From assembly GCA_025881525.1 (NCBI GenBank), contig GCA_025881525.1_4849.1: a stretch of DNA of 24,537 nt, one strand, 5' to 3'. The stretch's first letter is position 1, and every line of letters begins with the position of its first letter. This DNA comes from a phage. Made by a program: the position numbers and the translations under genes. The notes under the pieces are model-generated. The model was not told the origin of the DNA, searched no databases, and saw only the letters and a list, made by a program, of their open reading frames with translations. Below, one piece after another: positions 9,763-11,441 of the stretch.

Positions 9763-9780
9763 CACCTCACTCATCGTTTG

Positions 9781-9836
9781 ATGTAGATACTATGCACCAC
9801 CACTCAATCTACGTCAACAGTCATTGTGATAGAATT
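9781..9836. promoter_or_regulatory. divergent promoter region: TTGACG -35 (minus, 9812-9817) and extended -10 TGaTAGAAT (plus, 9827-9835), built around the 15-mer AATCTACGTCAACAG
   Basis: Read directly; located between divergently oriented gene blocks. Confidence 0.45.
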
Positions 9837-9861
9837 AATCATTATTTGAACAGGAGGCAGA

Positions 9862-10140
9862 ATGAAGCTATCGCAACGCGGCGCGGAGGCTCTCGGAATC
9901 ACCGATGCCGTGGATATATCGCCTTACATCACCACTGAGACAACGCAGAATCAGTTTGATGCACTGACAAGTCTTGCTGCCGACATCGGCATTGACTCGT
10001 TCCGCAAATCAACGCTTCTGAAGAAACACAATCTCCGCTGCTTCTCATGTGTCGTTGCTCATTTCATCGTGTGGGGCGAGAAGACTGGCGACAAAGCAAA
10101 ACGCAAAGCTGAAAAAGAGGTTTACTGGTATGGCTATTAG
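9862..10140 (+). CDS. GH24 (T4/P22-type) lysozyme-like remnant lacking the catalytic N-terminal core (92 aa)
   Basis: C-terminal half QNQFDALTSLAADIGIDSFRKSTLLKKHNL resembles P22 gp19 NQNQYDALCSLIFNIGKSAFAGSTVLRQLNL (from memory); no E-x8-D-x5-T catalytic block; GGAGG RBS. Confidence 0.5.
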   Translation: MKLSQRGAEALGITDAVDISPYITTETTQNQFDALTSLAADIGIDSFRKSTLLKKHNLRCFSCVVAHFIVWGEKTGDKAKRKAEKEVYWYGY

Positions 10141-10594
10141 CAAAAACATGAAAGCGTTTCTGGATATGCTGGCATACAGCGAGGGCACGGATAACGGGCG
10201 ACAGAAAACCAATAATCATGGCTATGATGTGATTGTTGGTGGCTCGTTGTTTACCGACTACTCAGACCACCCGCGCAAGCTGATTAGCCTGCCTAAGCTG
10301 GGCATCAAATCCACCGCCGCCGGTCGCTATCAGGTGCTGGCTAAATTTTATGATGCATACAAAAAGCAGTTGCGTCTGCCTGACTTCTCTCCCGCATCTC
10401 AGGATGCTATTGCAATGCAGCTAATCCGTGAATGCAAGGCCACCGCTGATATTGAGGCTGGTCGCATTGCTGATGCCATCCATAAATGCCGCTCCCGCTG
10501 GGCTTCATTGCCGGGCGCTGGTTATGGTCAGCATGAGCAGAAACTGGATAAGCTGATTCAGGTATACAAAGAGGCTGGCGGAGTTGTGGCATGA
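10130..10594 (+). CDS. R: endolysin, lambda R-type lytic transglycosylase
   Basis: KAFLDMLAYSEGTDNGRQKTNNHGYDVIVGG...DYSDHPRKL...AGRYQ closely matches lambda R as recalled; ATG 10130 with AAAGAGG RBS preferred over track start 10049. Confidence 0.9.
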   Translation: MAISKNMKAFLDMLAYSEGTDNGRQKTNNHGYDVIVGGSLFTDYSDHPRKLISLPKLGIKSTAAGRYQVLAKFYDAYKKQLRLPDFSPASQDAIAMQLIRECKATADIEAGRIADAIHKCRSRWASLPGAGYGQHEQKLDKLIQVYKEAGGVVA

Positions 10595-10830
10595 AAAAGC
10601 TAAGCAACTGGCTGCTCGGCGCGTGGATTTCATTCTGCTCACTATTGCAGCTATGGCCTGATGCAATGATGCATGTGTGGGTAATGATGCCGGATGACCT
10701 GAAAGCAGCGCTACCGCCAATCGTGGTTAAAGGTGTGAGCTACTCAATCATGCTTGTTGGCATCCTCGGCAAAATGCACGGCATGAGGAAGGAAAACCGG
10801 AGGCTGCGCAATGATGTCAATTCTCGCTAA
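10591..10830 (+). CDS. putative holin (two TM segments, highly basic C-terminus)
   Basis: Hydrophobic WLLGAWISFCSLLQLW and VSYSIMLVGILG with C-terminal KMHGMRKENRRLRNDVNSR; sits between endolysin and spanins. Confidence 0.45.
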   Translation: MKKLSNWLLGAWISFCSLLQLWPDAMMHVWVMMPDDLKAALPPIVVKGVSYSIMLVGILGKMHGMRKENRRLRNDVNSR

Positions 10831-11302
10831 ATACTGGCGACCGCTGGCAATTATTATAATTGCTGCTGCTGGTGCGTTGTGGGTGCGTGGCGAAATTATC
10901 AGCTACGGCGACCAGCGATACGCAGAAGGCAAAGCTCAAGCAATCGCAGACCAGAAGGCCGCAGACGAACAAGAGGAGCAACGACGCAATGCAGAACTGC
11001 AAAAAATTCAGGCCGACGCACAGCAAAGAATTGATGCTGCGCGCAATGATGCTGTTAATGCTGCCGCTAAGTCTGGCAGGTTGCAGCAACAACTCACCAG
11101 TATCCGCAAGCAGCTCGTCGGATATTTCACCTCTGAGTCCATTGGCAACCCAGCCGCAGAAACCGGAGTTTTGCTTGGAGACGTGCTCAGCAAATCTGTC
11201 GAAAGAAATCGACAACTGGCAGATTATGCTGACAGGGCGAGAGAAGCGGGATTAGCGTGTGAGGCGCAGTACAATTCGCTGCGTAATAAAAAAGCCCCGT
11301 AA
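10811..11302 (+). CDS. Rz: i-spanin (Rz-like)
   Basis: N-terminal TM (LAIIIIAAAGALWV) followed by charged coiled-coil periplasmic domain; GGAGG RBS; hosts an embedded lipoprotein ORF. Confidence 0.7.
   Translation: MMSILAKYWRPLAIIIIAAAGALWVRGEIISYGDQRYAEGKAQAIADQKAADEQEEQRRNAELQKIQADAQQRIDAARNDAVNAAAKSGRLQQQLTSIRKQLVGYFTSESIGNPAAETGVLLGDVLSKSVERNRQLADYADRAREAGLACEAQYNSLRNKKAP
11034..11255 (+). CDS. Rz1: o-spanin (Rz1-like), embedded in +1 frame within Rz
   Basis: Lipoprotein signal with lipobox MLRAMMLLMLPLSLAG-C, Pro/Ser-rich mature part; fully nested in i-spanin gene. Confidence 0.6.
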   Translation: MLRAMMLLMLPLSLAGCSNNSPVSASSSSDISPLSPLATQPQKPEFCLETCSANLSKEIDNWQIMLTGREKRD

Positions 11303-11318
11303 TGGGGCTTGTGTTTAA
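11285..11318. terminator. bidirectional hairpin terminator (GCCCC-gtaat-GGGGC) flanked by A-run and T-rich tract
   Basis: Read directly; spanin stop codon in loop; convergent gene blocks meet here. Confidence 0.6.
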
Positions 11319-11441
11319 TTGCTTTGCTCAGAATCTTCTCTCTGCTTCCACATCTGCTTCAGCTGAAAATAAGCATATGCCTCATCACCATCCTTCGCAT
11401 TGCGTTCCATTTGTTCACACCATGCTGATGGTTTTGGTGGC

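Follow-up and report, generated by a model that had tools for sequence, protein, structure and literature searches.

What is the short lysozyme-like open reading frame (ORF) that lies directly upstream of an intact endolysin gene in a phage lysis operon: a decayed gene, a second endolysin, or a protein with another role? The question was raised by a 24,537-nucleotide stretch of phage DNA (GenBank assembly GCA_025881525.1, contig GCA_025881525.1_4849.1; hereafter the window), in which a virulent siphophage has its lysis operon at positions 9862-11302. The initial annotation had described the 92-amino-acid ORF at 9862-10140 as a decayed GH24 lysozyme, either a pseudogene or repurposed, followed by a lambda R-type endolysin gene at 10130-10594. 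Here, we call this ORF the mini-lysozyme gene and its product the mini-protein. The reading that we favor, and that we consider fairly probable, is that the mini-protein is a non-catalytic, selected lysis accessory derived from a GH24 lysozyme, paired and coupled with the R-type endolysin.

The similarity of the mini-protein to GH24 lysozymes was confined to the C-terminal part of the domain. The Pfam profile PF00959 (Phage_lysozyme) was matched with E=3.1e-10 and 40.9 bits (cut-off 22.3) at profile positions 55-114 of 125 only, and a custom hidden Markov model (HMM) built from full-length relatives was aligned at positions 69-144 of 146 only. The sequence matches in the Protein Data Bank (PDB) were restricted to the C-terminal halves of GH24 lysozymes, such as residues 70-126 of 146 in P22 lysozyme (2anv). 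The ORF had been described as the C-terminal part of a GH24 lysozyme without the N-terminal catalytic core, and these searches bore out the description, including the similarity to the P22 enzyme.

Comparison with the full-length GH24 lysozymes of Escherichia phage Bas81 and Klebsiella phage ZCKP2 indicated where residues are missing. Residues 1-7 (MKLSQRG) were the same as those of the Bas81 enzyme and were followed by a gap of ~54 residues, after which the C-terminal lobe (C-lobe) was 47-50% identical to those of Bas81 and ZCKP2, with TTQNQFDAL, SLA, IG, KSTLLKKHN, CFxC, and W in common. A second gap removed five residues from the C-lobe loop before the RR motif. The 92-amino-acid protein is thus a GH24 derivative composed of helix A and the C-lobe, with both deletions in frame. 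MAFFT placed the first gap after residue 8, and an alternative collinear alignment, which equates residues 1-23 with helix A plus strand beta1, gave a weak HMMER signal for the copy of phage Skate only (3.2 bits). Because the DNA had no similarity past codon 7, the deletion junction is ambiguous within residues 8-24, the collinear reading being equally plausible. Under either reading of the junction, the beta-sheet bearing the catalytic Asp and Thr is missing. The mini-protein is a basic (pI 8.6), cytoplasmic protein of 10.3 kDa without a signal peptide. Among GenBank phages, the mini-lysozyme lineage had no close full-length relative at 60-80% identity.

A pair of cysteines, Cys60 and Cys63 (C-F-S-C, window positions 10039-10050), forms a CxxC motif that was invariant in all three mini-lysozyme lineages described below. 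The motif was also present in the full-length GH24 lysozymes of Bas81 and ZCKP2 and was absent from the P22 and T4 lysozymes; a redox or metal-related role is possible.

The catalytic residues were then examined, since the 92-amino-acid protein contains a literal E-x8-D-x5-T string (E9/D18/T24), and since the annotators of Skate recorded an E..D..T motif and named the gene endolysin_glycosidase. The E9/D18/T24 string was rejected as a true triad on the basis of conservation, profile alignment, and chance frequency. Among 63 unique proteins, position 9 was E in 55, D in seven, and H in one, and in two further lineages, represented by Flyfo siphovirus Tbat1_6 (Flyfo) and the metagenomic contig L072, it was K and position 24 was K or A. 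The profile alignment put E9, D18, and T24 off the catalytic columns, and the pattern arose in 3.2% of shuffles of the mini-lysozyme sequence; accordingly, the match is probably due to chance. In the collinear alignment, the catalytic Glu column corresponds to position 15, which was D in 56 of the 63 proteins, including that of the window, N in five, G in one, and Y in one. Flyfo and L072 have E at this position. The segment homologous to that with the catalytic Asp and Thr was deleted in every alignment. The protein is without three defining features of an active GH24 enzyme, namely an invariant catalytic Glu, the Asp/Thr pair, and the two-lobe cleft fold. The absence of an intact triad, which the initial annotation had implied, was confirmed in that no homologous triad is present, the literal string being non-homologous and non-conserved.

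An AlphaFold2 model of the mini-protein was compact and all-helical without a beta-sheet (pLDDT 91, pTM 0.85). Foldseek matched the model to the GH24 lysozymes AbLys1, PHAb11, R21, P22, and T4, with TM scores of ~0.7 relative to the query (TMq) and 0.35-0.45 relative to the target (TMt), and also to G-protein-coupled receptor fusions with an engineered minimal T4 lysozyme (mT4L), a precedent described in PMC4379943. In BFVD, the sole full-coverage match was the independently modelled homologue of phage KFS-SE2 (TM 0.98). The deletion therefore took one structural lobe and left a unit that plausibly folds by itself. Other structural and profile matches included SpmX (6h9d by Foldseek; NF051871 in NCBIfam).

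A search of 1.8 billion proteins also yielded GH24 proteins in which the lysozyme domain is duplicated in tandem (in the set P0044, P0045, P0047, P0056, P0089, and P0114), together with C-lobe-only ORFs of 91-103 amino acids that keep the GL..RR loop (P0056, P0089, and P0114). The latter could be either fragments of genes or mini-lysozymes that arose independently.

Selection on the mini-lysozyme gene was examined with 36 related copies (L001-L003 and L006-L038) and that of the window, giving 37 sequences, 35 of which were distinct at the nucleotide level. All 37 copies were 279 nt long, with neither a stop codon nor a frameshift. The ratio of non-synonymous to synonymous substitution rates (dN/dS) was 0.118 at a dS of 0.35 (pairwise Nei-Gojobori method), as compared with 0.033 for the R-type gene, 0.098 for the holin gene, and 0.065-0.09 for the C-lobe core of the mini-lysozyme itself. 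Variable sites were distributed over the three codon positions as 27/17/70, and in the most divergent pair synonymous differences outnumbered non-synonymous ones 29 to 15 (Fisher p=1e-11). Another frame or strand as the selected one was also considered and rejected; in the forward direction, a low dN/dS was confined to the annotated frame, and 0.177 was obtained for the one antisense frame with the same wobble positions.

The same architecture was found outside this group. Flyfo and L072 encode 93-amino-acid versions with the same boundaries, 53% identical to the window copy and 67% to each other. In both, an R gene (80-85% identical) and then a DUF7940 holin gene come next. TTQNQFDA, SLA, LLKKHN, CFxC, and W71 were invariant across the three lineages. 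Across two backbone types, the mini-protein was 53% identical, whereas R and the full-length GH24 lysozyme were each 85% identical at comparable backbone divergence. The mini-protein thus evolves ~3 times faster than R or full-length GH24, its constraint being relaxed but far from absent. Taken together, these results demonstrate purifying selection on the amino-acid sequence of the mini-protein. The terms "decayed" and "pseudogene" are contradicted by the constant length, the absence of stops and frameshifts in 37 copies, the dN/dS of 0.12, the occurrence in three lineages, and the well-predicted fold. Of the two options initially left open, repurposing is therefore the likely one, in agreement with the selection, the conserved architecture, and the fold.

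The genomic context indicated how the mini-lysozyme came to lie beside the R-type gene. The closest relative of the whole window was Escherichia phage vB_EcoS_swi2 (hereafter swi2; 90.9% identity at 75% coverage), and the cassette was matched in 184 GenBank phage records, mostly at 88-93% nucleotide identity, with carriers including Skate, Vi II-E1, DS8, KFS-SE2, and Bas77-80. The features of the window cassette are as follows.

9827-9835, plus strand: promoter-like extended -10 element TGaTAGAAT, read by eye, with a putative function
9852-9857, plus strand: Shine-Dalgarno sequence AGGAGG, 4 nt before the mini-lysozyme ATG and conserved in relatives
9862-10140, plus strand: mini-lysozyme gene, 92 amino acids, ATG start (partial PF00959 match; PHROG 10457)
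10115-10120, plus strand: ribosome-binding site AAGAGG of the R-type gene, within the 3'-terminal part of the mini-lysozyme gene and 9 nt before the ATG at 10130
10130-10594, plus strand: lambda R-type endolysin gene, 154 amino acids (3d3d/1am7 match; PHROG 90, endolysin)
10591-10830, plus strand: holin candidate, 79 amino acids (DUF7940, E=1e-9; PHROG 13249, holin, E=3e-52)
10811-11302, plus strand: Rz-like i-spanin, 163 amino acids, with an N-terminal transmembrane domain (DUF2514, E=8e-30; PHROG 312)
11034-11255, plus strand: Rz1-like o-spanin, in the +1 frame inside Rz (ORF 10860-11255; PHROG 11621, E=1e-34)
11292-11310, both strands: bidirectional intrinsic-terminator-like hairpin at the end of the lysis operon, found by a scan; the Skate record also annotates a terminator there

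In Bas81 and ZCKP2, the slot of the mini-lysozyme and R-type genes was occupied by one full-length GH24 gene (145-146 amino acids), followed by the holin gene. Neither phage had an R-type gene, and both had the promoter region, holin, and spanin in common with the window. Nucleotide homology between the window and Bas81 stopped at 9881 and resumed at 10591, the holin start; that between Flyfo and ZCKP2 stopped 3 nt before the start codon and resumed 5 nt before the holin start. Because homology breaks at both edges of the slot, the mini-lysozyme plus R pair and the single GH24 gene are exact allelic alternatives. Indeed, the holins of Flyfo and ZCKP2 were 100% identical and their spanins 93% identical, with the former phage carrying the pair and the latter the GH24 gene. 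Among GenBank phages, 140 records had the mini-protein (at least 80% identity) and 143 had the R type, a difference that includes the Flyfo records. These results indicate that the two genes are inherited together and move as one unit across backbones, and that the pair is an old composite module and not a local scar of the window genome. The replacement of the lysis module that had been suspected is consequently supported, and the full-length GH24 gene that was to be sought at this locus in related phages was found in Bas81 and ZCKP2.

The match of Salmonella phage LPST10 (H27/H28) to positions 9765-11400 was ~540 nt longer than that region, and its annotation includes a gene for an HNH homing endonuclease there, which points to mobile-element traffic near the lysis cassette. 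ZCKP2 has a second small gene annotated as "holin" on the opposite strand, ~1.2 kb 3' of its lysis cassette (L004, 4723-4923).

The signals for expression were largely common to the two types of cassette. The AGGAGG sequence and the -10-like element were found before both the mini-lysozyme gene and the full-length GH24 gene of Bas81. The extended -10 element was nearly invariant in the 37 relatives and read TGATAAAAT in ZCKP2 and Flyfo. A consensus promoter scan made no plus-strand call and returned only a minus-strand site (TTGACG-17-CATAGT, 9817-9789). The divergent promoter region that separates the leftward genes from the lysis operon spans positions 9785-9835; it also contains an imperfect inverted repeat, GATGTAGAT...ATCTACGTC, and the block CAATCTACGTCAA was kept even in the Klebsiella-type backbone.

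At its 3' end, the mini-lysozyme gene overlaps the R-type gene by exactly the 11 nt reported initially, as the R ATG is at 10130 and the mini-lysozyme TAG ends at 10140, 8 nt past the R start codon. The junction GAGGTTTACTGGTATGGCTATTAG, which comprises the R ribosome-binding site, the R ATG, and the upstream TAG, was almost invariant in the 37 relatives and similar in Flyfo, and the Skate record annotates a ribosome-binding site at the same position. Since the stop and start overlap and the R ribosome-binding site is inside the upstream ORF, translation of R is probably coupled to that of the mini-protein. A fusion of the mini-protein with R by frameshifting was also considered; no slippery site was seen by eye, no motif search being run, and R has its own Shine-Dalgarno sequence and ATG. 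The R frame (+1) has no stop codon over the 27 codons before its ATG, the first of which is a GTG at 10049; this extension was also present in L011 and absent in L034, and is probably incidental.

The product of 10130-10594 matched lambda lysozyme (3d3d_A and 1am7_A) with E=4e-62 over residues 3-153 against 4-153, and the catalytic Glu was kept (E18 in YSEGT, corresponding to E19 in WSEGT of lambda), as it was in Flyfo and L072. The identification of this gene as a full-length lambda R-like transglycosylase was thus upheld. From its sequence, the R-type gene would be the one that now carries out cell-wall cleavage in this phage. The protein had neither a signal nor a signal-arrest-release segment (maximum 19-residue Kyte-Doolittle hydropathy, 0.38); because it is soluble and without an export signal, it depends on the holin. 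The holin candidate had hydrophobic segments at residues ~4-22 and 41-62, of which the second alone exceeded a Kyte-Doolittle value of 1.6, residues 4-22 averaging ~1.15. The Skate record labels its homologue a class II holin, and for the swi2 homologue two transmembrane domains were predicted by TMHMM, yet no holin lethality was observed (PMC8185280). The i-spanin had a 19-residue Kyte-Doolittle hydropathy of 2.0 from residues 11-13 onward. The o-spanin had a signal peptide (MLRAMMLLMLPLSLAG, cut before C) with the lipobox LSLAGC, and an alternative upstream ATG at 10989 is the start in the Skate annotation.

Family searches confirmed all five genes in the order initially given, namely the lysozyme-derived ORF, endolysin, holin candidate, and Rz with embedded Rz1. 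The position of the holin gene after the endolysin gene had been called atypical. This holds only in comparison with lambda; within the phage group, the endolysin-holin-spanin order was conserved throughout, including members with a full GH24 gene. This order is the group norm and no by-product of the endolysin replacement.

The holin and Rz genes overlap by 20 nt in the window. Several relatives have an extra small ORF of 53 or 68 amino acids between the two genes, on 142-187 nt of inserted DNA (L011, 3450-3611; L034, 3450-3656; approximately window positions 10811-10830). The 68-amino-acid ORF of KFS-SE2 ends in ...RLRNDVDSR, resembling the C-terminus of the window holin, which suggests an insertion duplicating the 3' end of the holin gene.

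How could a half-lysozyme have been retained beside a new endolysin? In the mechanism that we propose, a GH24 gene lost the N-terminal lobe (~54 codons) and a five-codon C-lobe loop, both in frame, while the R-type gene, placed between the mini-lysozyme and holin genes, would have taken over cell-wall cleavage. The shortened gene would still use the original promoter region and the strong ribosome-binding site, and its product is predicted to adopt a fold made up of helix A and the C-lobe. As our best guess, the mini-protein would keep an old binding role of the C-lobe, directed to murein or to the holin or R, besides a cis role of its gene in R translation. We infer that the mini-protein most likely acts non-enzymatically as an accessory in lysis. 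Because one GH24 lysozyme suffices for sister phages whose holin is the same, an attractive reading is that the C-lobe has an old or newly gained binding role that R cannot supply. A more specific and tentative version is that a natural stand-alone C-lobe, as a new kind of lysis accessory, serves as a non-catalytic partner of the holin or R that tunes the timing or efficiency of lysis and travels with R. If this is true, the label of second endolysin is wrong in more than 140 phage genomes and in one experimental paper.

Several observations weigh against a retained accessory role. The Y-N of the full-length relatives is changed to A/T-D/S in all mini-proteins at C-lobe cleft positions, which we take to be equivalent to the substrate contacts F104/Q105 of T4 lysozyme. 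The loop before the RR motif is also shortened in the mini-proteins; together with the cleft changes, this disfavors a plain retention of murein binding. In lambda, R works without any helper. Two 92-amino-acid metagenomic variants, P0029 and P0033, have part of the C-terminal third replaced by a translation of the R frame and then return to frame. They look like compensated frameshifts and may stem from misassembly or be real variants in which the last helices are dispensable; if real, they would better fit a requirement for translation only, which counts weakly against a role of the protein. The swi2 homologue was weakly "antibacterial", which its authors read as enzymatic (PMC8185280).

A functionless remnant whose frame is kept open in cis, as a translational-coupling leader bearing the R ribosome-binding site, would account for the 11-nt overlap, the R Shine-Dalgarno sequence inside the ORF, and the nearly invariant junction. 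It would also suit P0029 and P0033, which look like compensated frameshifts that keep only the ends of the ORF, and the roughly threefold faster evolution of the mini-protein relative to R and full-length GH24 (53% versus 85% identity). However, a leader is expected to have a dN/dS near 1, whereas the value was 0.12 for the whole gene and 0.065-0.09 for the C-lobe core, which is distant from the junction. The third-position bias was strong, the core lysozyme motifs were invariant across three lineages at 53% identity, and the high-confidence predicted fold was retained. A 279-nt leader could, moreover, be shortened easily, yet the length is fixed at 92-93 codons. We therefore regard this explanation as unlikely. 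The mini-protein might instead have a role outside lysis and simply ride in the operon; it could, for example, be a decoy or inhibitor that targets host or competitor lysozymes or defences, or have a superinfection-related function. Non-lytic roles of the lysozyme fold have precedents, SpmX being among the matches (6h9d, NF051871); the substrate-facing residues have diverged; and the gene is under selection although dispensable in sister phages with the same holin. The strict linkage to R, the late-operon position, and the coupled translation are difficult to reconcile with such a role, and a protein without a signal peptide would reach the envelope at lysis only. Similarity to known defence or anti-defence families did not emerge either, although PADLOC was not among the resources searched. 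We consider such a role quite unlikely.

The existing annotations and the swi2 study assume that the protein is a second active endolysin, that is, a minimal muramidase alongside the R-type enzyme. Besides the E..D..T label of the Skate record and the literal E9/D18/T24 string, this assumption can draw on the Glu at position 15 in Flyfo and L072, which in the collinear alignment falls at the catalytic Glu position of Bas81. The TF-tagged swi2 protein, lysin2 (62 kDa, the tag plus 10 kDa), reduced Escherichia coli by ~1 log in vivo and in vitro (PMC8185280). However, the effect was small (0.01<P<0.05), was insensitive to EDTA, and was obtained with a fusion carrying a 52-kDa tag, and the paper reports no peptidoglycan hydrolysis assay (PMC8185280). 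On the sequence side, ~54 residues including the Asp/Thr beta-sheet were missing in every alignment; E9 was variable and K in Flyfo and L072, where T24 was K or A; position 15 was D, N, G, or Y in the window clade; the motif appeared in 3.2% of shuffles; and the model covered only ~0.35-0.45 of GH24 structures. Cationic C-terminal helices of lysozymes are reportedly able to kill bacteria non-enzymatically (attributed to During et al. 1999), which offers another explanation of the swi2 effect. A second enzymatic activity is thus very unlikely, and a selected, non-catalytic accessory of lysis remains our preferred reading.

Part of this was already known, since the family is catalogued as "endolysin" (PHROG 10457), is annotated in more than 140 genomes, and has been expressed once. 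Literature searches returned no description of the missing catalytic lobe or of purifying selection for this family. What is new is a half-lysozyme that occurs in nature, is kept by selection, and is paired with an R-type endolysin. The finding corrects the annotation of two endolysins in more than 140 Skate-, swi2-, and Vi II-E1-like genomes, several of which have been proposed for biocontrol, and bears on the published claim of two active lysins in these phages. It also provides a natural example of the replacement of a lysis enzyme, in which a new enzyme came in, the old one lost exactly its catalytic lobe, and the foldable rest was selected, as well as a small, testable candidate for a new accessory function in the lysis of Gram-negative hosts.

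Among known systems, the GH24 lysozymes (T4 gpe, P22 gp19, and those of Bas81 and ZCKP2) are alike in the homology of the C-lobe, and those of Bas81 and ZCKP2 also in the slot, the promoter region, and the ribosome-binding site. In contrast to the Bas81 and ZCKP2 enzymes, the mini-protein is without the N-terminal lobe and a conserved catalytic Glu and has about two thirds of the length. The R gene of lambda follows the holin gene S and has no lysozyme-derived ORF upstream. In SpmX of Caulobacterales, a GH24 muramidase domain was co-opted as a localization factor, but that protein keeps the whole two-lobe domain. Non-catalytic endolysin subunits that are made separately are found in PlyC, and CD27L, CTP1L, and Lys170 produce cell-wall-binding domains from internal starts. 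By analogy, these may serve as precedents for an endolysin-derived binding polypeptide beside or within a catalytic gene; such heteromeric endolysins are, however, Gram-positive systems whose extra subunits are cell-wall-binding domains and not half of a catalytic domain. The nearest relative is lysin2 (orf51) of swi2, a member of the same family (PHROG 10457) whose copy (L033) is ~90% identical. The study of that phage treats lysin2 as a functional muramidase and leaves the missing catalytic lobe unremarked (PMC8185280), whereas our analysis indicates a non-catalytic protein. In architecture, the closest counterparts are mT4L (Thorsen et al. 2014; PDB 4u15/4u16) and the autonomously folding C-terminal subdomain of T4 lysozyme, both of which likewise consist of helix A and the C-lobe. 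For mT4L, a stable helical domain has been demonstrated, whereas that of the mini-protein is predicted here. While mT4L was made in the laboratory as a crystallization aid, the mini-protein is natural, belongs to a P22-like GH24 lineage, and is kept by selection; it is a natural counterpart to the engineered minimal T4 lysozyme.

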